Translations under genes and position numbers: made by a program | In this document: positions 31,232-44,246 of the stretch, one piece after another | Numbering within the stretch: position 1 is the stretch's first letter | How the letters are laid out: each line of letters opens with the position of its first letter | Source: an uncultured delta proteobacterium | GTDB lineage: Bacteria > Myxococcota_A > Polyangia > Polyangiales > Houyiibacteriaceae | Length of the DNA: 64,000 nucleotides | Assembly: GCA_963699755.1 (NCBI GenBank) | Contig: CAVOVB010000001.1 | Coordinates: 1,824,001 to 1,888,000 of the forward strand | Reading direction: 5' to 3' | Notes under the pieces: generated by a model | What the model was told of the DNA's origin: nothing | What the model saw: only the letters and a program-made list of their open reading frames with translations | Databases searched by the model: none

Positions 31232-31765
31232 TCAGAAATCAGCCTCGGTGCCGCATTGGAGCATGTCGGTGCCCATGTATGGGTTTGAGACACCTTCAGA
31301 CACCTGCACCCACTTCTTGTAGCCTTTCGCCATGGGGCATTCGTAGACGTGTCGGCCCTGCTGGAGGCTCGGCTCGGCGGACAGTACGGCGATGAGTGCC
31401 TGGCTCACATCGCCAAACGCCTTTCTCGCTTCGCTCAGGTCCGAGCTTTCCAAGCCGGCGAGCCGTTGTGCGGCGCTCGACAGATCCTCCAGAGGCCGGC
31501 GGAGGCTATCCGGAGCCGATGCCGAGGCCAGACGTGCCGCGTCCGCAAGCTGGGTTGCCGGCGTTTTTACGTCTCCGCGATCTTCTGCGAGTGCACCGCG
31601 CGCTAGGTCATAGGCCGCGACGGCTTCGTCGATTCTCGCGCTCGTCTCGGCAGGGAGCGTCGACGGTTCGGGAACCGCCTCCCGGCTCTTGCTGCATCCA
31701 ATGAAAATGCTCGCCACACCGATTACGGCGCCTACGAGCAGAACCGCTGGTCGTCCATTCGTCAT
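31232..31765 (-). CDS. DUF3347-like periplasmic metal-binding lipoprotein
   Basis: Lipobox FIGC; RKAFGDVS, YECPMA..W..NPYMG..MLQCG; ATGA overlap with cusA stop. Confidence 0.8.
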   Translation of the reverse strand: MTNGRPAVLLVGAVIGVASIFIGCSKSREAVPEPSTLPAETSARIDEAVAAYDLARGALAEDRGDVKTPATQLADAARLASASAPDSLRRPLEDLSSAAQRLAGLESSDLSEARKAFGDVSQALIAVLSAEPSLQQGRHVYECPMAKGYKKWVQVSEGVSNPYMGTDMLQCGTEADF

Positions 31766-34700
31766 ACCTCGTCTCCATTTCCTTCTGCGTGATTGACCTG
31801 AAGCGCAGGAAGAGAGCGACCCTTCCATGCAGCAAAAATCGCTGGATAGACCGTGAGCTCCAGCAAGAACGAAGTCACCAGACCGCCCACCATCGGCGCA
31901 GCAATTCGCTTCATGACGTCTGCTCCCGTGCCTGTGCTCCAGAGGATCGGCAAGAGTGCAATCGTGGTGGTCATCACGGTCATCAGCTTCGGCCGGATTC
32001 GCCTTGCGGCCCCGTCGACGATCGCTTCGGTGAGGTCCGCCGGAGTTTGGAGCGTTCCGTCGTCCTGTGATTTCTTGTGGGCGAGGGTCAGGTACAGCAG
32101 CATGACGACACCCGTTTCCGCGTCGAGGCCAGCCAAGGCGATCATGCCGACCCAGACCGCAACGCTCATGTTGTAGTCGAGGAAGAACAGAAGCCAGACC
32201 GCTCCGATGAGGGAAAATGGCACGGCGAGCATGACCATCGCAGTCTCCGCCCAGGACTTGGTGTTCCAATAGAGAAGCATCATCACCAAGAACAGCGTCA
32301 CGGGCACGACCAACTTGAGCTTTTCCTTGGCGCGTTCGAGGTACTTGAACTGACCGGCCCAGCCCAACCACACACCCGCAGGCAGTGTGACCTCGTCGGC
32401 GATGACACGCTTTGCGTCCTCGACGTACTGCGCGATCGGTCGGTCGGTGTCCACGAAGACGAAGCCCACGAGCTTGCCGTCTTCACTGCGAACCATCGGA
32501 GGTCCCATCACGAACTTCAGGTCCACGACTTGGCTGATCGGCACCTGCGCGCCCGTCTGCGTGCTGATGAGAATCTCTCCGAGTAGCGATGGATCATCAC
32601 GGAACTCGCGCGCATAGCGAACGGTGATGGGATAGCGTTCCCGTCCTTCTACGGTCTCCGAGACGGTCATGCCGCCGACGGCCGTCATGATGACCTCGTT
32701 GACGTCGGCCACGCGGAGCCCGTAGCGCGCGGCCTTTTCGCGATCGACTTCGAAATCAATGAAAAACCCACCTGCGGATCGCTCCGCAAACGCGCTCCGC
32801 GTCCCCGGAATCTTGGACACGGCCTGCTCGATCTGCACCGCGGTGTGCTCGATCGTCTCGAGGTCATTTCCAAACACTTGGATGCCCAAGGGGCTTCGAA
32901 TGCCGGTCGCTAGCATTTCGGTGCGCGTTTGCACCGGCATCCAAAAGATGTTGGGCATACCCGGGTAGCGCACGGTTTCGTCCATCTCCTGGATTAGGCC
33001 CTTCCAAGTGAGGCCGGCTCTCCATTCGTCTCGCGGCTTGAGCACGATGGTCGTTTCCAACATGCCGAGCGGCGCGGGATCCGTGGCGGTTTCCGCTCGC
33101 CCCGCCTTGCCGAACACCGAGACCACCTCGGGGAAAGACTTGAGCTGGCGGTCCATGGCCTGGAGCACGTTCGAGGCCTCCGTCACGGACATCCCCGGAG
33201 GCGCCGTTGGCATGTAGAGAATCGTGCCCTCGTTCAGCGGAGGCATGAACTCGCTTTGCAGCTTGAAGAAGGCGGGAACCGTCAGTCCCATGGCGACGAG
33301 CGCAAAGACGACCACAGCCCGCCGGTGCGCCACGACGAACCGAACGACTGGCGCATACGAGGCGATCAGCCAACGGTTGAGGGGGTTCTCTTCTTCGCGG
33401 CGAATTTTTCCCCGGATCAGGAGTACAGCCAGCGCCGGGATAAGGGTGATCGAAAGGATCGCGGCAAACCCCATCGAGTAGGTCTTCGTGAAGGCCAGCG
33501 GCTTGAACAGACGCCCCTCCGCGCTTTCCAGGGTGAACACCGGCAAGAACGAGACCGTGATCACCAGAAGCGAGAAGAAGATCGACGGGCCGACCTCTTG
33601 CATCGCAGCCACGATCGTTTGCTGTCTCGACCCCGGCTGTCCCTCGGCATCCCAAACCTCCAACTTCTTGTGGATGTTCTCGATGACGATAATCGATGCA
33701 TCGACCATGGCGCCGATCGCGACAGCGATTCCGCCCAGCGACATGATATTCGCCGTCAGGTTTTGATAGTACATCGGGATGAAGGAGAGCATCACTGCAA
33801 GCGGTAGCGTGATGATGGGAACGAGCGCGCTTCGCGCGTGAAGCAGAAACAAGAAGATGATCACGCTGACCACGATCATCTCTTCGATCAACGTGCTTCG
33901 GAGCGTGCCGATGGCTCTCTTGATGAGGTCGGAGCGGTCGTAGGTGATGACCAGCTCGGTGCCATCGGGAAGGCCGGCCCTCACATCTTCGATCTTCTGC
34001 TTGACCGCGTCGATCACCGACAGCGCGTTTTCGCCGTAGCGCATGATGACGATGCCACCGACCACCTCGCCCTCGCCATCGAGCTCGGCGATTCCCCGAC
34101 GCATCGAAGGGCCGATGCTGACGACCGCCAGTTGATCGAGCAAGACCGGCGTACCGCCTTCGCCGAGCTTGACCGGGATCTTTCGCAGATCGTCTTCGCT
34201 ATGGATGTACCCGCGCCCCCGGATCATCTGTTCATGACCCGCAATCTCGATCGTGCGCCCTCCGGCGTCTTCGTTGGACTCGCGTACCGCCCGCACGACA
34301 TCCGCGATGCCCACGTCGTAGGCACGAAGCTTCACGGGGTCGACCTGCACCTGATATTCCTTGACGAAGCCGCCGACGGACGCCACTTCCGCGACCCCAG
34401 GCACGCTCTCGAGCGCGTACCGCAGATTCCAGTCCTGGAACGAGCGCAGCTCTTGCAGGTCGTGCTTACCGCTCCTGTCCACCAAGGCGTACTGGAACAC
34501 CCAGCCCACGCCGGTCGCATCCGGGCCTAGGGTGGGGCGCACGCCGTCCGGCAGGTCGGCGAGCGCGGAGTTGAGGTATTCCAGGACTCGGCTTCGCGCC
34601 CAGTACATGTCGGTCCCGTCTTCGAAGATCACCGAAACGAACGAGAGCCCGAAGAAAGACTGGCCTCGCACGAACTTGACCTTCGGCGCTGCCAGCAGAA

Positions 34701-34953
34701 AGGTCGAAATCGGGTAAGTGATCTGATCTTCGACCAAGTCGGGGCTTCGGCCCTGCCACTCCGTGAAGATGATGACCTGCGTGTCCGAGAGATCTGGAAT
34801 CGCGTCGAGCGGTGCGTTCCGGAGCGAGTAGTAGCCCCAAACACCCGCCACGATTGCGAACAAGAGCGTCATGAAAGGCTGACGCGCACTCGCCTCGATG
34901 AGGCGGGCAATCAGAGTAGGCTTCGGGCTCGCCTCGTCTTCAGTGAGCGCCAT
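31762..34953 (-). CDS. cusA: CusA/CzcA heavy-metal RND efflux permease (Cu/Ag type)
   Basis: LDAIPDLSDTQVII, GPDATGVGWV, GAMVDA, EFMPPLNEG, RIRPKLMT. Confidence 0.95.
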   Translation of the reverse strand: MALTEDEASPKPTLIARLIEASARQPFMTLLFAIVAGVWGYYSLRNAPLDAIPDLSDTQVIIFTEWQGRSPDLVEDQITYPISTFLLAAPKVKFVRGQSFFGLSFVSVIFEDGTDMYWARSRVLEYLNSALADLPDGVRPTLGPDATGVGWVFQYALVDRSGKHDLQELRSFQDWNLRYALESVPGVAEVASVGGFVKEYQVQVDPVKLRAYDVGIADVVRAVRESNEDAGGRTIEIAGHEQMIRGRGYIHSEDDLRKIPVKLGEGGTPVLLDQLAVVSIGPSMRRGIAELDGEGEVVGGIVIMRYGENALSVIDAVKQKIEDVRAGLPDGTELVITYDRSDLIKRAIGTLRSTLIEEMIVVSVIIFLFLLHARSALVPIITLPLAVMLSFIPMYYQNLTANIMSLGGIAVAIGAMVDASIIVIENIHKKLEVWDAEGQPGSRQQTIVAAMQEVGPSIFFSLLVITVSFLPVFTLESAEGRLFKPLAFTKTYSMGFAAILSITLIPALAVLLIRGKIRREEENPLNRWLIASYAPVVRFVVAHRRAVVVFALVAMGLTVPAFFKLQSEFMPPLNEGTILYMPTAPPGMSVTEASNVLQAMDRQLKSFPEVVSVFGKAGRAETATDPAPLGMLETTIVLKPRDEWRAGLTWKGLIQEMDETVRYPGMPNIFWMPVQTRTEMLATGIRSPLGIQVFGNDLETIEHTAVQIEQAVSKIPGTRSAFAERSAGGFFIDFEVDREKAARYGLRVADVNEVIMTAVGGMTVSETVEGRERYPITVRYAREFRDDPSLLGEILISTQTGAQVPISQVVDLKFVMGPPMVRSEDGKLVGFVFVDTDRPIAQYVEDAKRVIADEVTLPAGVWLGWAGQFKYLERAKEKLKLVVPVTLFLVMMLLYWNTKSWAETAMVMLAVPFSLIGAVWLLFFLDYNMSVAVWVGMIALAGLDAETGVVMLLYLTLAHKKSQDDGTLQTPADLTEAIVDGAARRIRPKLMTVMTTTIALLPILWSTGTGADVMKRIAAPMVGGLVTSFLLELTVYPAIFAAWKGRSLPALQVNHAEGNGDEV

Positions 34954-36208
34954 GCCCGCCTCCCCAATACCCGGTGGCGGATCGAATGCGGCTCTCGGCC
35001 GCGATGAGAAAATTCCCGGAAGTCACGACGACATCGCCCGGTTCGAGGCCGTGCGTCACTTCGACGTAATCGCCTGCCCGTACGCCGACTTCGATCTCTT
35101 GCGGACGAAGCCTTCCTTCGCCGAGGTCGACGAATACCAGGCGGCGGGGCCCCGTGTAGATCACCGCCGAACTGGGAATCACGAGTCGTTCCCCGAGGTC
35201 TACAGCGAGCTCGACATCAGCGTACATGTCGGGCTTGAGCGTCAAGCCTGGGTTGTCGAGCGCCACACGCACACGACCCGTCCGTGTGACTGCGTCCAGC
35301 GTTGGGTAGATGTAGTCCACCGTGCCCTCAAAGCTCTGCCCGGGCACATAGGGAAGTTGCACGGACACCGGTTGATTTTTCTTCACCTGGGCCAGATCGG
35401 ATTCATACACTTCCGCATCGACCCAGAGACGGCTCAGGTCGGCGATTCGGTAGACGCGTGTGCCGACCTCGATGCGCCCGCCCTCCACCACATCTTTGTG
35501 GATGACGTATCCGGTGGCTGGAGCCACCACAGGAACGTTCTCCCAGGCCTCGCCCCGCCGTGCGAGCTCGCGAATCTGTGCTTGGCTCATGCCGAGCAGA
35601 CGAAGCCGTTGTTCGGAGGCGCGCGTCAGCTCCGAGCTCGTGACCGAACGAGCCTCACGGTCCCGTTTCAACGTGGTCAGGTATTCGCGTTCGGCCGCGT
35701 AGAGCTCGGGGCTGTAGAGTGTAAACAGGACTTGCCCTCGCTTGACACGTTGCCCGGTCTCCTCGACATGGAGCCGGTGCACCCAGCCACTCATGCGAAG
35801 GTTCACGTCCGAGAGACGTGTCTCGTCGACCTTGACTTGGCCCACGGCACGAATCTGACGCGAGACGTTTCGCCGCTCCACGGCTGCCGTCCTGACCCCA
35901 ATCTGCTGCCGGCGCACTTCGTCGACCACGATGATCCCACTCTTCAAGTCCTCCTGCTTCACCGGCGTGAGGTCCATGCCGCATATCGGACACTTCCCTG
36001 GCGACGGCTGCTGCACAGAAGGGTGCATGGGACAGGTGTAATACGCGACGCCCTCTTCGTGCGCGTGATGATCGACCTCTTCCTGGCTTGCCTCCGGCTG
36101 CCCGGTGTCCCGGCTGAACATCCAAATCGCGGCGCCAGCCATTCCGAGAAGCAGCAGGCCGAGGAGCGCCCAGTAGCGTCGCTTTCCAGTAGGTTCACGG
36201 AAGCTCAT
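34940..36208 (-). CDS. cusB: CusB-type RND periplasmic adaptor with heavy-metal-binding domain
   Basis: YYTCPMHP..PGKCPICGMDL, LYSPEL, IYPTLD, LKPDMY, SGNFLI. Confidence 0.92.
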   Translation of the reverse strand: MSFREPTGKRRYWALLGLLLLGMAGAAIWMFSRDTGQPEASQEEVDHHAHEEGVAYYTCPMHPSVQQPSPGKCPICGMDLTPVKQEDLKSGIIVVDEVRRQQIGVRTAAVERRNVSRQIRAVGQVKVDETRLSDVNLRMSGWVHRLHVEETGQRVKRGQVLFTLYSPELYAAEREYLTTLKRDREARSVTSSELTRASEQRLRLLGMSQAQIRELARRGEAWENVPVVAPATGYVIHKDVVEGGRIEVGTRVYRIADLSRLWVDAEVYESDLAQVKKNQPVSVQLPYVPGQSFEGTVDYIYPTLDAVTRTGRVRVALDNPGLTLKPDMYADVELAVDLGERLVIPSSAVIYTGPRRLVFVDLGEGRLRPQEIEVGVRAGDYVEVTHGLEPGDVVVTSGNFLIAAESRIRSATGYWGGGHGAH

Positions 36209-37583
36209 TCGGCCCTCCTTGATTTCCCAGGCCCGGTAAGATTCCGCGTGCCCGATCGAGCTCTGCAGCCCGCTGCCCGAGGCTGGCCAAAACCTGCTCG
36301 TATTCGATCTCGAGTGTTCGAAGCGAACGTTCGGCGTCGATCAGCGCCTGAAAGCTATTCCGTCCGGTGTCGTAACCGAACCCGGCTGCGTCGATTTGCG
36401 CCCGCGCCGCCGGGATCAGTCGCGTCTCATACAACCGAACCACATGCTCCGCTTCGAGCACGCGCTGGCGTGCTTGATCGACCTCGACCCGCACCTCGTC
36501 TCGCTTCACAGAGAGCTCGGCGGAGGCCTGCTCGGCACGGGCCTGCGCTTCGTCGACGGCGCCCTTCCGCGACCTGATCTGCAGTGGCAGGTTCAGCGAA
36601 ACCCCGGTCATCCATTGATGCTCCGTTCGGGCCCACATCGAGTTGTATTCTCCCATGAGTCCTATTGCGGGTGAGTAGTTGCGTTTGGCGAGCCCGACCG
36701 CGGAGTCCGCAGCCCGCAACTGAGATTGCGCGGCATGAAGCTCGGGCCGATGCTCCAGCGCGTCTCGCTGCAATTCTTCCGTCTGAGGCACTTCGATCGA
36801 GGGTGGTGTCGTCCTTCGAGGCGGCGCAGGGAGCTCCAGCTCGGGGCGCTGATGGAGCAGGCCGTTGATCTGCGCCATAATCACCCTCCGCTCCGATTCG
36901 AGCATGACGCGTTGATGGATGATGTGCGCCAGCTCCACCTCGGCTTGCAGGACATCTTGCTGAGAAGCGCGTCCTGATTCGTATTGCACCATCGCGCTTG
37001 CTTTGATGTCCTCGATCAGCTCACGATGCTCGTCGTTGAGCGTGAGCACACGCGTCACTCGGTGGTAGTCGTCGAACAGGGACGAAGCCATCAGGGCAAG
37101 CGTCAGCCGCACCGCTTCGTAGCCGCCGCGCATCGCCTCGGCCTCTGCGAGCGCAACCTCTCCGGCAAACCTGAACTTACCGGGCGTGGGGAAGCGTTGC
37201 TCGAGCCGAACGACTTGGCCAAACCGCACCACGTCCGAGCGTATGCTCAGTGGCGCAAGCGAATAGCTCGCCATGGTATCTTCGAGGGAGCGTGCCTGGG
37301 GGTGTTCCGCCAGCGTGGCCCGCCAAGCCTGCCTCGCCGCTTCCAAGTTGGGGTTTCGCGCGAGGACGGCGCGAACGAGCGCCTCCCGTTCTAGCGCGGT
37401 GTCGCTGCGGAACGATGATTGCTCCTCGAGCTCCTCCCCGTCGGCACCGTTTCGTGGCTTTGCTGCGTCGAGCGCGCTTTTTTGCGCATGGTACTCACCG
37501 CGCTGGCCGTGCGCGCAGCCACTGAGGCCCATACTCCATACGAGCCAAGGCACCACGGCCGCGGCCATTGGTATTCGATTCAT
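36195..37583 (-). CDS. TolC-family outer-membrane efflux protein (CusC-like)
   Basis: Lipobox LSGC; two OEP repeats (RNPNL..; HRPEL..); precedes cusBA. Confidence 0.85.
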   Translation of the reverse strand: MNRIPMAAAVVPWLVWSMGLSGCAHGQRGEYHAQKSALDAAKPRNGADGEELEEQSSFRSDTALEREALVRAVLARNPNLEAARQAWRATLAEHPQARSLEDTMASYSLAPLSIRSDVVRFGQVVRLEQRFPTPGKFRFAGEVALAEAEAMRGGYEAVRLTLALMASSLFDDYHRVTRVLTLNDEHRELIEDIKASAMVQYESGRASQQDVLQAEVELAHIIHQRVMLESERRVIMAQINGLLHQRPELELPAPPRRTTPPSIEVPQTEELQRDALEHRPELHAAQSQLRAADSAVGLAKRNYSPAIGLMGEYNSMWARTEHQWMTGVSLNLPLQIRSRKGAVDEAQARAEQASAELSVKRDEVRVEVDQARQRVLEAEHVVRLYETRLIPAARAQIDAAGFGYDTGRNSFQALIDAERSLRTLEIEYEQVLASLGQRAAELDRARGILPGLGNQGGPNELP

Positions 37584-37681
37584 TGCTCCATTGCTCCTCT
37601 GCACATACCCAGGGCCTGCTTTGAACACAGACCCGCCTCGAACGGCGATGAACGCCGCTCAGCCCAAGACGCGCAGAGGGC

Positions 37682-38065
37682 TCAAATCAGATAGGAGCAG
37701 TTCCAAACAAACAGAGGTGGGCCGTGTACTCCAGGAGAGCCGCGCGCCAGCGGAATCCACCCCGCGTCGGTGGGGGGTGCATCGCCGGGCTCGTCCATCT
37801 GGACGGCCGAGGAAATCAAAAGGGGCGCATCCACGCCGGCCTTGTCGCTTCCGGTCGCGACCGGCGGATGCTCGCTCTTCGAGATCAGCGCGCCGCAGCA
37901 ATCGTCGACAGGCTCGAGCTGGACGGGAGGCCCCTCGTGTTCGCCGTGGCAGCAGCAGGTCCTCACGATGAGGCCTTCCATGGCGCACAGATGCAGCGCC
38001 GCCCCAGCCACCCCGGTGGTGGCCACGAACATGAGCGTCAAAAGGGCTGTGGCTGCTCGCAGCAT
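37682..38065 (-). CDS. Small secreted Cys/His-rich leader protein (HxC..CC..PP; DUF2946/CutF-like architecture)
   Basis: Signal-like N-terminus, LHLC, TCCCH, DDCC, C-terminal RGSPGVHGPP; start 38065 or 38077. Confidence 0.7.
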   Translation of the reverse strand: MLRAATALLTLMFVATTGVAGAALHLCAMEGLIVRTCCCHGEHEGPPVQLEPVDDCCGALISKSEHPPVATGSDKAGVDAPLLISSAVQMDEPGDAPPTDAGWIPLARGSPGVHGPPLFVWNCSYLI

Positions 38066-38143
38066 TCGGACGCCCATTCTAGCACAGCGCCCGCCAGGTG
38101 CGGTCGCGTCGTTTTTGCCCCATAGCGGGGAGGGTAGGAAGCC

Positions 38144-40387
38144 ATGCCTATCTCGAACGAACTGTACACCTGTCCCATGCATCCGGAGGTCCGACAAGAT
38201 CACAGCGGGTCCTGCCCGACCTGCGGAATGGCGCTCGAACCCGTCGCGCCACCGCCACCACGAGCGCAGGTCGAGTGGACCTGCCCGATGCACCCGGAGA
38301 TCGTGAGGGTCGAGCCGGGAAGCTGCCCGATTTGCGGGATGGCGCTCGAGCCACGCGACGTCTCGGCAGATGACGATGCTGCGAACCCGGAGCTCGTCGA
38401 TATGACGCGCCGCTTTTGGGTGGCGGCCGCGTTCGCCATTCCGGTGGCTGTCATTGCGATGGGCGACCTGCTTCCCGGAGAGCCGATCTCACAGATCCTT
38501 ACCCCGAGGGCGCGGACTCTGTTGGAGCTTGCACTCGCAACACCCGTTTGCCTCTGGGCAGCCTGGCCTTTTTATGTTCGCTTCGCACAGTCGTTGAAAA
38601 ACAAGAGCCTGAACATGTTCACGCTGATCGGCTTGGGTGTGAGCGTTGCATATGGCTACAGCGTCGTCGCGGCGCTCGCGCCCCAAATCTTTCCCAAGTC
38701 GTTTCGAAACGAGGGTGGAGAAGTCGCGGTGTACTTCGAGGCGGCTGCGGTAATCGTCACGCTGATCTTGTTGGGGCAAGTTTTGGAGCTTCGCGCGCGT
38801 GGTCAGACGGGGGCCGCAATCAAGAAGCTCCTCGGCCTCGCGGCAAAAACGGCGCGACGCATTCGCGAGGACGGAAGTGACGAGGACGTACCGTTGGAGC
38901 ACGTTCATGCTGGGGATCGCTTGCGTGTGCGCCCTGGTGAGAAAGTGCCAGTCGACGGGGTCGTTCTTGAAGGGGCAAGCTCCATCGACGAGTCGATGGT
39001 GACTGGCGAGCCGATTCCCATCGAGAAGCACGAGGGAGATCAGGTCATTGGAGCAACGATCAATGGTACCGGAATGCTCATCATACGGGCCGAAAAGGTT
39101 GGCTCGGATACGCTTTTGTCCCGGATCGTCGCGATGGTCGCCGAAGCGCAACGAAGCCGGGCTCCGATTCAGAAGCTTGCGGACGTGGTGTCCGGCTACT
39201 TCGTGCCGATCGTAATCAGTGTAGCCATCGTGACGTTCGCGATTTGGGGGCTGGTCGGCCCGGAGCCACGCATGGCGCATGGTTTGATCAACGCGGTTGC
39301 CGTCCTCATCATCGCGTGCCCTTGTGCGCTCGGCCTGGCGACCCCGATGTCGATCATGGTCGCCATGGGCAAAGGGGCGAGTGTCGGCGTTCTCTTCAAG
39401 GATGCCGAAGCGATCGAAGTCTTGCGCAAAGTAGACACCCTCGTCGTGGACAAGACGGGAACGCTCACGGCGGGCCGACCCGCGCTGGTGATCGTGGAGA
39501 CGGCCCCTGGGTTCGACGCGACCGAGCTGCTCAGCGCTGCATCCGGTCTCGAGCGTGCAAGCGAGCATCCCTTGGCGGAAGCGATCGTGGCCGGTGCTCT
39601 AGAACGAGGTGTTTCCATACCGCATGCGGAATCGTTCGAGTCGATCACGGGTCAGGGCGTGCTCGGCCGTGTTGCGGCCCGTGACGTGGCGCTTGGGAAT
39701 CTCAAGCTGCTCGAAGGACTCGGCCTATCCGCGGGTGCGCAGGCTCGCCGGGCAGACGAGTTACGCGGCCAAGGGCAAACCGTCATGTTCGTCGTGGTCG
39801 ATGGAGCGGTCGTCGGGATTCTCGGCGTGGCCGACCCCATCAAAGACAATACGCCAGACGCCATTGCCGCCTTGCATGCGGAGGGGGTGCGCGTCGTGAT
39901 GCTCACTGGCGACAACCGCAAGACCGCCGACGCAGTCGCCGCGAAGCTGTCGATCGACGAGGTGATCGCCGAGGTGCTGCCCGATCAAAAGGCAGAGGTC
40001 ATCAAGCGCCTGCAGGACGGCGGAAGCGTCGTGGCGATGGCGGGCGACGGGATCAACGACGCCCCGGCGCTAGCGCAGGCGCATGTCGGAATCGCCATGG
40101 GCACCGGCACCGACGTGGCGATGGAGAGCGCCGGCGTAACTCTGGTCAAAGGCGACCTGCGCGGAATCGTTCGTGCCCGAAAGCTCAGTCGGGCGACGAT
40201 GGCCAACATCAAACAGAACCTGTTCTTTGCCTTCGTCTACAACAGCTTGGGGGTGCCAATTGCTGCTGGCGTGGCCTATCCGGTGTTCGGCCTCCTTCTC
40301 AGCCCGATGATCGCGGCGGGAGCGATGAGCTTCAGCTCCGTGTCCGTGATCGCGAACTCGTTGCGTCTGCGCCGCTTGCAGATCTAA
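38144..40387 (+). CDS. copA: Copper-translocating P1B-type ATPase
   Basis: Two (Y/W)TCPMHP..CPxCGM domains, TGE, CPC, DKTGT, SEHP, GDGIND, YN and MSFSS. Confidence 0.95.
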
Positions 40388-40815: not shown

Positions 40816-40887
40816 CCCCCCGACGGCAACACGGGACGCGATAAAAAACATGGCTTTGCGGCGCTATTGAAGGTAGGGAACGGTCAG

Positions 40888-41499
40888 ATGCACCCTAGGC
40901 TCGAAGCCTACATCAGCCGCGCGCTGCCGCATATCGATGAGGTTGTTGACGAGCGGAAGCGCGCGCTACGAGAAGTCTCCGCGTTCGTTGCGGCCAAGCA
41001 TCGGGCAGGGCAAGTCGCCGAGCTGACGTTCGTCTGTACGCACAACTCCCGGCGGAGCCAGATGGGGCAACTTTGGGCCGCGGCGGCCGCCGCGCACTTT
41101 GGAATAGAGCATGTGCGCACGTACTCGGGTGGCAACGAAGCAACGGCGTTCAACCCGCGCGCAGCGGCCGCGATGCAGCGCGCGGGTTTCATCATCGAGA
41201 ACCCGGGAGGCGACAATCCGTGCTACCAGGTGACGTTCGACGAAGAGGGTCCGGTCATCGAATGCTTCTCGAAGATCTATGATGACCCTGTCAATCCCGC
41301 GACCGGCTTCGCGGCCATCATGACCTGCTCCGATGCGGACGAGGCCTGTCCCGTGATCAAGGGCGCGGCCCTTCGCGCGCCGATTCGTTACGATGACCCC
41401 AAAGTCGCCGACGGAACGCCGGACGAGGCGTTGGCCTATGATGCGCGTTGCCTGCAGATCGCGACGGAGATGCTCTACGTATTCGCGCGGGTCGCCTAG
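40888..41499 (+). CDS. Low-molecular-weight phosphatase/arsenate reductase-like protein
   Basis: FVCTHNSRRSQ P-loop, MTCSDADEACP, YDDPK; close to acr3. Confidence 0.82.
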   Translation: MHPRLEAYISRALPHIDEVVDERKRALREVSAFVAAKHRAGQVAELTFVCTHNSRRSQMGQLWAAAAAAHFGIEHVRTYSGGNEATAFNPRAAAAMQRAGFIIENPGGDNPCYQVTFDEEGPVIECFSKIYDDPVNPATGFAAIMTCSDADEACPVIKGAALRAPIRYDDPKVADGTPDEALAYDARCLQIATEMLYVFARVA

Positions 41500-42375: not shown

Positions 42376-43437
42376 CTATGCTTCTAGCACGGCGGGGGGA
42401 GCGAAGTATCTCTTCCGAATCCCGAGGGCGACGCTGACCAGGGCGATCATGACCGGCACCTCGACCAAGGGGCCGATGACCGCCGCAAAGGCGGCTCCGT
42501 GATGAATGCCAAAGGTCGCGACGGCAACCGCGATCGCGAGCTCGAAGTTGTTCGAGGCAGCCGTGAAAGACAGCGTCGTCGCCACCGGGTAGTCGGCCCC
42601 TGCAGCCTTCGAGAGCCAGAACGAGATGAAGAACATGGCCACGAAGTAGATGAGAAGCGGTATGGCGATGCGAACCACGTCGAACGGTAGGGCGACGATC
42701 GTGTCTCCCTTGAGCGAGAACATGACGACGATCGTGAAGAGAAGGGCGACTAGCGTGATCGGACCGATGCGCGGCGCAAAGGACTCGTCGTACCAGTCGC
42801 GTCCCTTCGCCTTGATGAGCCCTGTTCGTGTCAGGAAGCCAGCAGCGAAGGGGATGCCGAGATAGATCGCGACGCTCTTGGCGATTTCGGTGATCGTGAT
42901 GTCGACGACCACTCCTTCGAGGCCCAGCTGTGCCGGCAGCCAGGTGACGAAGAACCATGCATAGACCGAGAAGAACAGAATCTGAAAGATCGAATTGAAA
43001 GCGACCAATCCTGCTGCGAATTCGCGGTCTCCGAGCGCGAGATCATTCCAGACGATGACCATGGCGATGCAGCGTGCCAGCCCGATGATGATCAGCCCGA
43101 CCATGTACTCCGGCTTGTCGGGCAACAATGTGACCGCCAAGGCAAACATGAGCACTGGGCCGATGACCCAGTTCTGAATCAGCGACAGCGTCAGGACCTT
43201 CTTGTTGGTGAAGACGCGCCCCATCTCCTCGTACCGGACTTTCGCGAGGGGCGGGTACATCATTAGAATCAAGCCCACCGCGATTGGGATGGACGTCGTA
43301 CCGATGCTCATGGCGTTCAGCGCATCGGCAAATCCCGGTACGAGGTAGCCCAGGCCAATGCCGAGCGCCATGGCGACGAAGATCCACAGCGTCAGGTAAC
43401 GGTCGAGAAATGAAAGGCGGCGCTGCTGGCTGGTCAT
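42376..43437 (-). CDS. acr3: ACR3 family arsenite efflux transporter
   Basis: [51 protein letters not shown]. Confidence 0.95.
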
Positions 43438-43490
43438 CGTGTTGCGCTTTGCGTGGCAGGTGGCGGGAGCCTTCCATATACTCCGCGGCA

Positions 43491-44246
43491 ATGAAAGCCG
43501 AACGGCATGAGCGCCAACCCAGCCATTATCTGATTCAGGGCCGCAACGTGACGATGCCATGTGTCGTTCGGGATGCATGCTCTGCGACGGCGACTTGGCT
43601 CGTCAGCGCGCAGGCGGCCCAGGCGCTGCTCCCCGGGCCCGAGCTCGAGATCGCCCAAGTGCTCCCAGGGCGCGGGCTGCTCAGCATCGCGTGCATCGAC
43701 TACCGCGACAATGACCTAGGCGACTACAATGAGGTTTCGATTGCGTTCTTCGTTCGCAAGCGTGGTGATCGCAAGGGCGTTCCGTTCATGGGCGCGGGAA
43801 TCGACATGATTCGGGGGGTTCTCCCAACGCACATCATTCATCTTCCGGTGAATCAGTCCTTCACCTGCGAGGCCGGGCAAACGATTTGGGGGTTTCCCAA
43901 GACGGTCGATGAAATCGATTTCGACACGAGCGGCGACCGCGCCCGATGCGTGTGGAACAAGGACGGGCAAAACGTGCTGAAGATCAGTTTCCCGATCGGC
44001 GGAAATCGCGCCTTTCCTGAGCAGGAGCTTTGCACCTACAGCTACATCGACGGGACGCTGCATCGGACGCCGTTCATATCGAGCGCTGAAAATCTCGGCG
44101 TTCGGCTTGGCGGCGTGAAAATGGCGCTGGGTGCACACCCAATCGCGGACGAGCTGCGTTCGCTCGGTCTTCCGAAGCCAGCACTGATGAGCTTGTGGAT
44201 GGGAAAGATGAGAGGCCGGTTCGAGGCTGCCGAGAGGTGTGCCTGA
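43491..44246 (+). CDS. Acetoacetate decarboxylase family protein
   Basis: [18 protein letters not shown] motif. Confidence 0.75.

Follow-up and report, generated by a model that had tools for sequence, protein, structure and literature searches.

The 64,000-nucleotide stretch analysed here (the window, in which all positions are counted) comes from an uncultured delta proteobacterium of the Polyangiales (assembly GCA_963699755.1, contig CAVOVB010000001.1) and carries a cusCBA-type efflux operon of the resistance-nodulation-division (RND) class, headed by a small open reading frame (ORF) that we call the leader (Table 1). The cusC ATG lies at 37583, leaving 98 nt between it and the leader stop codon. 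The best solved relative of the cusA product is E. coli CusA (1119 bits), and its residues M581, M631 and M680 align with Met residues of that protein, which we take to be its Cu(I) site. The top NCBIfam match of the cusB-like protein is PRK09783 CusB, below the cut-off. An earlier reading of this DNA (the original prediction) had proposed that the leader senses copper and controls cusC through a hairpin over its Shine-Dalgarno (SD) sequence, and the motifs on which it drew, LHLC (residues 24-27), TCCCH (36-40), DDCC (54-57), RGSP (108-111) and HGPP (114-117), are all where it placed them in an ORF of about 127 codons. We consider it probable that the leader is an exported metal-sensing arrest peptide whose last codons hide the cusC ribosome-binding site (RBS), such that efflux would be translated only upon release of the arrest.

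Table 1. Features of the leader and the cus locus, with positions in the window
Feature	Position	Strand	Basis or remark
Leader ORF (127 aa) for a predicted exported, Cys-rich protein resembling arrest peptides	37682..38065	-	ORF and homologue family
Extended -10 promoter-like element TGCTAGAAT	38076..38084	-	Predicted; 10 nt upstream of leader ATG
Predicted Sec signal peptide, residues 1-22, ends A-G-A	38000..38065	-	N-terminal hydropathy 1.0-2.6; modelled helix 2-21
Putative metal-binding segment (H25, C27, C37-C39, C56-C57)	37895..37993	-	Conservation
RGSP (108-111), likely arrest motif	37733..37744	-	Conservation; same position as RAPP/RGPP of relatives
HGPP (114-117), second Pro-Pro motif, possible secondary pause	37715..37726	-	Less conserved
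Coding-region anti-SD UGCUCCU (C123-S124-Y125 codons)	37693..37699	-	Pairs with AGGAGCA or second GGAGCA
Post-stop anti-SD strand GCCCUCUGCGC	37671..37681	-	Minimum free energy fold and cognate duplex test
Inner hairpin P2	37639..37661	-	98.7% paired; double changes at one pair (10 sequences)
Inner hairpin P3	37612..37634	-	94.1% paired; double changes at 4 of 8 pairs
cusC ribosome-binding region, GUGC-AGAGGAG SD and duplicated GGAGCA	37584..37604	-	3' strand of occluding helices
cusC-like outer membrane efflux protein gene	36195..37583	-	Pfam OEP, E 1e-36
cusB-like membrane fusion protein gene with HMBD domain	34940..36208	-	Pfam HlyD_D23, HMBD
cusA, Cu(I)/Ag(I)-type RND pump gene	31762..34953	-	TIGR00914 above cut-off
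copA-type copper P1B-ATPase gene, divergent	38144..40387	+	TIGR01511 above cut-off

Homologues of the leader made up 49 of 70 candidates, and a profile search gave a family of 430 clusters at 50% identity. Within the order, 61 of 401 genomes had matches, and a broader profile matched 48 of 301 genomes of the phylum; the relatives with a name are uncultured Polyangiales and Myxococcales together with one Holophagae genome, a narrower scan having returned uncultured genomes only. Judged from these homologues, the leader is a real and widespread gene of a Myxococcota-wide family that lies nearly always directly 5' of a metal RND efflux operon. Among 19 further distant loci, the 18 with a downstream start led into 15 genes for outer membrane efflux proteins (OEP), one CusB-like gene and two small DUF3347-like genes. 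Of 35 loci with longer flanks, 27 reach the CusA triad, which has three Met residues in 23, two in three and none in one. Conservation within the leader is confined to few positions: in 141 aligned sequences, with a mean column identity of 22%, only C27, C37-39, C56, C57, P111, C123 and L126 reach at least 90%. No Pfam or NCBIfam model matched the leader and no Rfam model matched the leader or the spacer. DUF2946 (PF11162) and HYC_CC_PP (NF047658) likewise had no match in the leader or elsewhere in the genome; among the 141 family members DUF2946 was weakly matched by six (best E 0.016), NF047658 by two (best E 0.025, below cut-off) and a CzcI-like model by one (E 0.08). In the ESM Atlas, a look-alike cluster at 0.96 carries DUF8199 (PF26622) on 47% of its members. 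A plasmid search with one distant member as query gave no match. A low-confidence structure model of the leader (pTM 0.29) is mostly unstructured, its best-predicted part being a helix at residues 2-21. Three loci (L101, L135 and L212) have a leader, a shortened spacer and an intact SD with no OEP match after it, the next long ORF encoding a LuxR-type regulator; these are possibly remnants left after loss of the efflux genes.

Folding of the 131-nt region from the leader's last codons through the cusC start, as the original prediction had called for, gave -60 kcal/mol (z = -3.74), a stability that 0 of 200 shuffled sequences reached. The stem it had proposed is present, CCUCUGCGC (37679-37671) pairing with GUGCAGAGG (37604-37596) through eight Watson-Crick pairs and one G-U pair and overlapping the AGAGGAG at 37600-37594, as is its second hairpin, GAGCGGCG/CGCCGUUC. 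It had overlooked a third hairpin (37634-37612), the UGCUCCU at 37699-37693, the duplicated GGAGCA and a conserved extended -10 box. In the fold of the locus the duplicated GGAGCA lets both anti-SD strands pair simultaneously. The post-stop strand first proposed belongs to a larger predicted anti-SD, the main part of which lies in the last nine codons and stop codon of the leader in 72 of 79 loci.

These 79 loci, which include the focal locus and its close kin, are what remained of 87 non-redundant loci after eight were dropped (two with no start, five with a weak SD call and one with an ambiguous start). In every one of them the downstream RBS (-16 to +3) pairs mainly with the segment from -30 to +17 around the leader stop, compared with 13 of 142 control gene pairs from the focal genome; in the seven loci where the coding side does not dominate, the post-stop side does. 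RNAalifold applied to 35 close loci gave UGCUCCU paired with AGGAGCA together with the two inner hairpins. Across 34 distinct sequences the coding anti-SD helix, P2 and P3 are 98.7, 98.7 and 94.1% paired, with double changes in one, one and four pairs, respectively. Codon usage in the tail follows the pairing partner: the Ser124 codon is TCC in 33 of 34 loci (17% genome-wide), and the Cys codon tracks the base after the SD, being TGC with GGAGY in 31 of 35 clade-A loci and TGT with GGAA in 28 of 29 clade-B loci, while three of the four clade-A loci with TGT carry a GGAAC copy. The post-stop stem failed a column-wise test (40.4% paired) because its register shifts between loci, which puts the alignment out of register. 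Tested sequence by sequence in 34 dereplicated loci, it showed cognate pairing at -13.6 kcal/mol and non-cognate pairing at -10.8 kcal/mol, a difference matched in 0 of 20000 permutations, and in 2 of 20000 within clade A. These data bear out an SD-occluding structure that is conserved across homologues and covaries, as the leader itself is conserved. Upstream of the tail, the RGSP and PPL codons (37744-37711, minus strand) contain SD-complementary CUCUCCU and CCUCUG written in rare codons, the Ser110 codon being TCT in 19 of 33 loci (5% genome-wide). Both stretches may serve as reserve anti-SD strands.

We computed the cost of opening the cusC RBS by equilibrium ViennaRNA folding with an assumed ribosome footprint of -12 to +15 forced unpaired. 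The cost is 15.8 kcal/mol on the free mRNA, 17.2 with S110 in the P site, 16.8 with P116 and 7.4 with the last codon; for the SD core alone the corresponding values are 13.0, 14.1, 14.0 and 4.7 kcal/mol, and with trailing ribosomes over the upstream coding sequence the SD core opens for about 2.5 kcal/mol. The largest opening was obtained with the ribosome over the last five codons, and varying the 3' footprint from 12 to 21 nt or using three RBS windows changed the outcome little. Across the 79 loci the median drop in opening cost is 8.2 kcal/mol at the stop (at least 3 in 66 loci), 0.0 at the arrest motif (4 loci) and 1.6 at the second Pro-Pro (15 loci). The focal locus, with a drop of 8.4 kcal/mol, ranks first among 143 co-directional gene pairs with spacers of 80-170 nt, the other 142 giving 3.5 or less, and in the 18 new distant loci opening of at least 3 kcal/mol occurred at the stop in nine and at the motif in none. 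By this computation, therefore, a ribosome arrested at RGSP or HGPP cannot open cusC and one finishing the leader can. The modelled geometry favours a switch that is off when stalled and on when released, the polarity that had been proposed. Because a signal for efflux must turn expression on, copper should, given this geometry, release the arrest.

Where the ribosome would arrest is a separate question, for which the original prediction had chosen HGPP, 10 codons before the stop. Conservation does not favour that site: xGPP occupies it in 35 of 50 close homologues, with no Pro-Pro in eight, and HGPP is present in 11 of 149 distant representatives, on which grounds we rejected it as the main arrest site. 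Residues 108-111 in the same 50 close sequences are RGSP in 43, RGPP in four and RSSP, RASP and PGPP in one each, and the distant representatives carry RGPP (62), RAPP (42), RSPP (3) or other matches (2), the last match ending 15-16 residues before the C terminus in 93 of the 149. The motif codons vary synonymously among loci, which shows selection at the protein level. The arrest motif is thus most likely RGSP, 16 codons before the stop, as judged by alignment. RGSP is a demonstrated arrest motif in the SecM of Mannheimia succiniciproducens, and RASP occurs among SecM-like upstream ORFs (uORFs; PMC10987492).

The predicted signal peptide has a basic start, a hydrophobic helix and an A-G-A site, as seen in the hydropathy profile and the low-confidence structure model. 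The leader has Cys residues at 27, 37-39, 56-57 and 123 and no CXXC motif. Among the Cys clusters, whose conservation the original prediction had made a test of its case, C27 is invariant and C37-39, C56 and C57 are at least 90% conserved in the 141 sequences. Cleavage after A22 would expose a mature N terminus A-L-H (37999-37991, minus strand), which has the Xaa-Xaa-His pattern of Cu(II)/Ni(II) sites; at least 90% of close homologues keep this His, and distant relatives mostly have Tyr in its place. The last CC stands 51-54 residues ahead of the Arg of the motif (5th-95th percentile, 155 proteins), and the tunnel and membrane together have been estimated at about 47 residues (PMC9973294). In an arrested chain this spacing would put the Cys cluster where SecY opens into the periplasm.

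The extended -10 element recurs among the relatives: 57 of 70 loci have TGnTAnnnT at 8-15 nt 5' of the leader start codon, and an SD is absent. Its position implies a very short, SD-less mRNA 5' end, and the motif match suggests constitutive, near-leaderless transcription, which fits post-transcriptional control. Sequence 5' of the -10 box is unrelated among loci, and thus no shared operator is visible. A simple -35/-10 scan at the locus found no promoter. We rejected the ATG at 38077 as the leader start, since it shares bases with the -10 box and since nearly all loci have the Met 26 residues ahead of the first Cys. A CsoR-like palindrome, CCCC-N5-GGGG, found upstream was also discarded, being not conserved. 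The original prediction had noted no CueR, CsoR or CusRS gene in the window; a search of the whole genome extends this, with no match for CsoR and none above the cut-off for CueR or CusS. Two MerR-like genes lie inside the window, their translations lacking a CueR-like Cys pair, and the genome holds eight MerR-like genes, all below the cut-off. One of these, far from the cus locus (C1:1396462-1396839), encodes a Cys-rich MerR-family regulator that is the best, though sub-threshold, CueR match and a candidate metal-responsive transcription factor. Contigs from four metatranscriptomes cover the leader and cusC, one of 667 nt comprising the leader, the spacer and the start of cusC, and three others end within the spacer; some extend across the gap that holds the divergent promoters, a sign of possible DNA carry-over, and we draw no conclusion on co-transcription from them. 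The spacer contains matches to intrinsic terminators with weak U tails. In Myxococcus xanthus, cus2 is copper-inducible in transcriptional fusions, in a report whose available portion mentions no leader (PMC7010606).

The leader and the divergent copA are 78 nt apart (38066-38143), with no recognisable regulator between them, and many clade-B loci have the copA start immediately next to the -10 box of the leader. Following cusA is a gene for a small exported protein (31232-31780, minus strand) with weak similarity to DUF3347 and the LIC13259 family and a C-terminal CPM motif, by its sequence likely a periplasmic copper chaperone standing in for CusF; in two distant loci (L175 and L176) a similar gene comes directly after the leader. 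An arsenate-reductase-like gene (40867-41499, plus strand) and an ACR3 arsenite exporter gene (42376-43578, minus strand) lie nearby and belong to a small metal-resistance cluster. Contig C7 of the same assembly (about 90000-190000; L031) holds nearly all of the window again, in syntenic order and at 78-91% identity, leader and cusCBA included. Since 9% contamination is reported for the assembly, this second copy probably stems from a co-binned relative and not from a duplication; its cusA is matched as two overlapping pieces, which suggests a frameshift.

The mechanism that we favour would begin with constitutive transcription from the extended -10 promoter, giving a near-leaderless leader-cusCBA mRNA. 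The nascent leader would enter SecYEG and the ribosome would arrest at RGSP, with the Cys cluster 53-83 residues out and just reaching the periplasm. During the arrest cusC would stay closed because, in the computed folds, the stalled ribosome is too far upstream to reach the anti-SD strands. Copper would then fold the Cys/His segment and pull the chain free, and a ribosome on the last codons and stop codon is computed to cover both anti-SD strands and to open the site by 8-12 kcal/mol, which would allow coupled initiation of cusCBA. Related steps have precedents: copper has been proposed to relieve RAPP arrest in CruR (PMC9426467), zinc-driven folding releases SecM arrest (PMC4571824) and translational coupling through RNA unfolding is known across 50-60 nt (PMC12548453).

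Several points weigh against this mechanism. Stalling, metal binding and regulation are read from sequence and folding, and the opening energies depend on an assumed footprint. The counts and permutation values overstate independence because the homologous loci are kin, and the coding-strand helix has no cognate advantage inside clade A or clade B. Of the 18 new distant loci, 12 keep the RBS pairing and six lack it, although the choice of start may be wrong in some. Forty of the 149 distant relatives have no R[AGS][PSA]P match. RGSP arrest may, by analogy, be weak outside the SecM context, since the Pro in third position is irreplaceable for arrest in ApdA and only Gly is tolerated there in ApdP (PMC12992588). 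A passing ribosome would open the site only briefly, and CutF, the only tested efflux-side system, has the opposite input in published accounts, copper prolonging its stall.

This last point is the basis of an alternative, on balance unlikely, in which copper would prolong a stall in the tail or at the stop codon, not at RGSP, and the parked ribosome would keep the site open. CutF itself works in this way (PMC9973294; 10.1101/2025.02.05.636593) and stop-codon arrest peptides exist (PMC10987492). In the present family the tail PP-(L/I)F-x3-CS(Y/F)L is very conserved, C123 and L126 included, the stop codon is TGA in 86 of 87 loci as against 465 of 866 long ORFs, and the last five codons are where a ribosome opens the site most. 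However, such a stall leaves the fixed R[AG][PS]P unexplained, RNA pairing accounts for much of the tail conservation, the tail Cys is gone in several distant members and the computed folds keep the site closed when the stall is at HGPP. A tail pause could also be an add-on to, or a second step of, the release-on switch, where the conserved tail may make the ribosome wait at the stop and so keep the site open.

A simpler account, which we think improbable, takes the leader for a small accessory protein that binds metal in the periplasm and has the helix only tie cusC translation to that of the leader, with no sensing. In its favour, RNA unfolding is known to couple translation across 50-60 nt (PMC12548453), RGSP may be a weakened motif and the Cys-rich MerR-family gene elsewhere in the genome could govern transcription. 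Against this, proteomes avoid RAPP and RGPP outside arrest peptides (PMC12992588), the leader is modelled as mostly unstructured, the motif position and Cys spacing are fixed, and the divergence upstream of the -10 box leaves no shared operator in view. There is only a slight chance that the switch is turned on by release and responds to something other than copper, be it another thiophilic metal (Ag, Zn or Cd) or periplasmic disulfide or secretion status. The six periplasmic Cys residues could form disulfides, as proposed for CutF (10.1101/2025.02.05.636593), and one relative has an RND pump without the Met triad and three have two of its three Met residues; yet this locus and most relatives have a CusA-type pump, often with a divergent copper ATPase.

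Among described systems the closest is CutF of Rhodobacter capsulatus with the CutF-like set, which share with the leader a small Sec-exported (here predicted), Cys-containing uORF with a C-terminal Pro-rich motif and a stem that hides the SD of a downstream copper-detoxification gene (PMC9973294, PMC8456105, 10.1101/2025.02.05.636593). The leader falls within the operational definition of that set (fewer than 150 aa, PP within 15 residues of the C terminus and a same-strand neighbour within 1000 nt), having 127 aa, P116-P117 and a 98-nt gap. Its predicted folds also hide the downstream SD, but the computed opening occurs only near the stop and not with a stall at the Pro motif. CutF ends in PEPEGPPPRL and stalls 2-4 residues from its stop, which is why its stall can melt the stem and switch the gene on (PMC8456105; 10.1101/2025.02.05.636593), whereas here a RAPP-type motif sits 16 residues upstream, the anti-SD is out of reach and a stall is predicted to mean off. 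The putative ligands differ too (C, CCC and CC here, CxxxC in CutF), and Myxococcota is not a named group in the accessible text of the CutF survey (PMC9973294). CruR of Bordetella pertussis (Bp2923, DUF2946) resembles the switch proposed here in its RAPP-type arrest, thought by its authors to be relieved by copper on Cys (PMC9426467; arrest shown, PMC12992588), and in that the spacing between Cys and arrest motif matters (PMC9426467). As described, its output is Rho-dependent termination that turns import off, its RAPP is at 139-142 of 145 residues and it has a CXXC, whereas the present leader has no CXXC and no DUF2946 match, is predicted to expose an SD and turn export on, and has its C-terminal motif 15-16 residues from the end rather than 3. 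SecM, ApdP and the RQH family have a signal peptide (predicted here), a RAPP-like core, a stem over a downstream SD and force-sensitive release (proposed here), but their stem is opened by the stalled ribosome, they control genes of the secretion machinery and they have no metal-binding segment (PMC10987492). CusD, SilD and CzcI of Cupriavidus metallidurans are likewise small uORFs heading metal RND efflux operons; the survey text gives no mechanism for them and CzcI as lacking a Pro motif (PMC9973294). HYC_CC_PP (NF047658)/DUF8199 (PF26622) has, judging from the family name, a similar order of motifs (H/Y-x-C, CC, PP).

The original prediction knew of no such control described for an RND efflux operon in myxobacteria. 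A literature search, most subscription papers being outside its scope, yielded no paper on a leader of this kind, either ahead of an RND operon or among Myxococcota, and did not find the leader family, the 16-codon offset, the tail-codon anti-SD or the release-on logic, although the supplementary list of the CutF survey may include these proteins. The novelty of the RND context was overstated, since OEP/RND genes are the commonest neighbours of CutF-like leaders (PMC9973294). The proposal is thus partly supported, its context known already and its mechanism upheld in outline with the corrections above. The chances seem to us evenly balanced that metal-sensing arrest peptides on near-leaderless mRNAs form a phylum-wide class, as yet without a family model, whose logic is inverted: a RAPP-type brake would lie 16 codons before the stop and the later codons would form the anti-RBS, such that arrest silences efflux, release by copper turns it on and the device takes the place of CusRS and CueR in controlling RND efflux in these bacteria.

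Only two copper-sensing leaders have been dissected so far; their inputs are opposite and their outputs unlike. According to the CutF survey, CutF-like clusters vary in how they act, and for most of them, the large group upstream of RND genes included, the mode of action has yet to be established (PMC9973294). For that group the leader family offers an answer both precise and testable, CruR-type release combined with an SD-melting output. If true, stalling on this arrest peptide would repress the downstream gene instead of activating it, and the family would account for the control of efflux in genomes where CusRS, CueR and CsoR are not recognisable.

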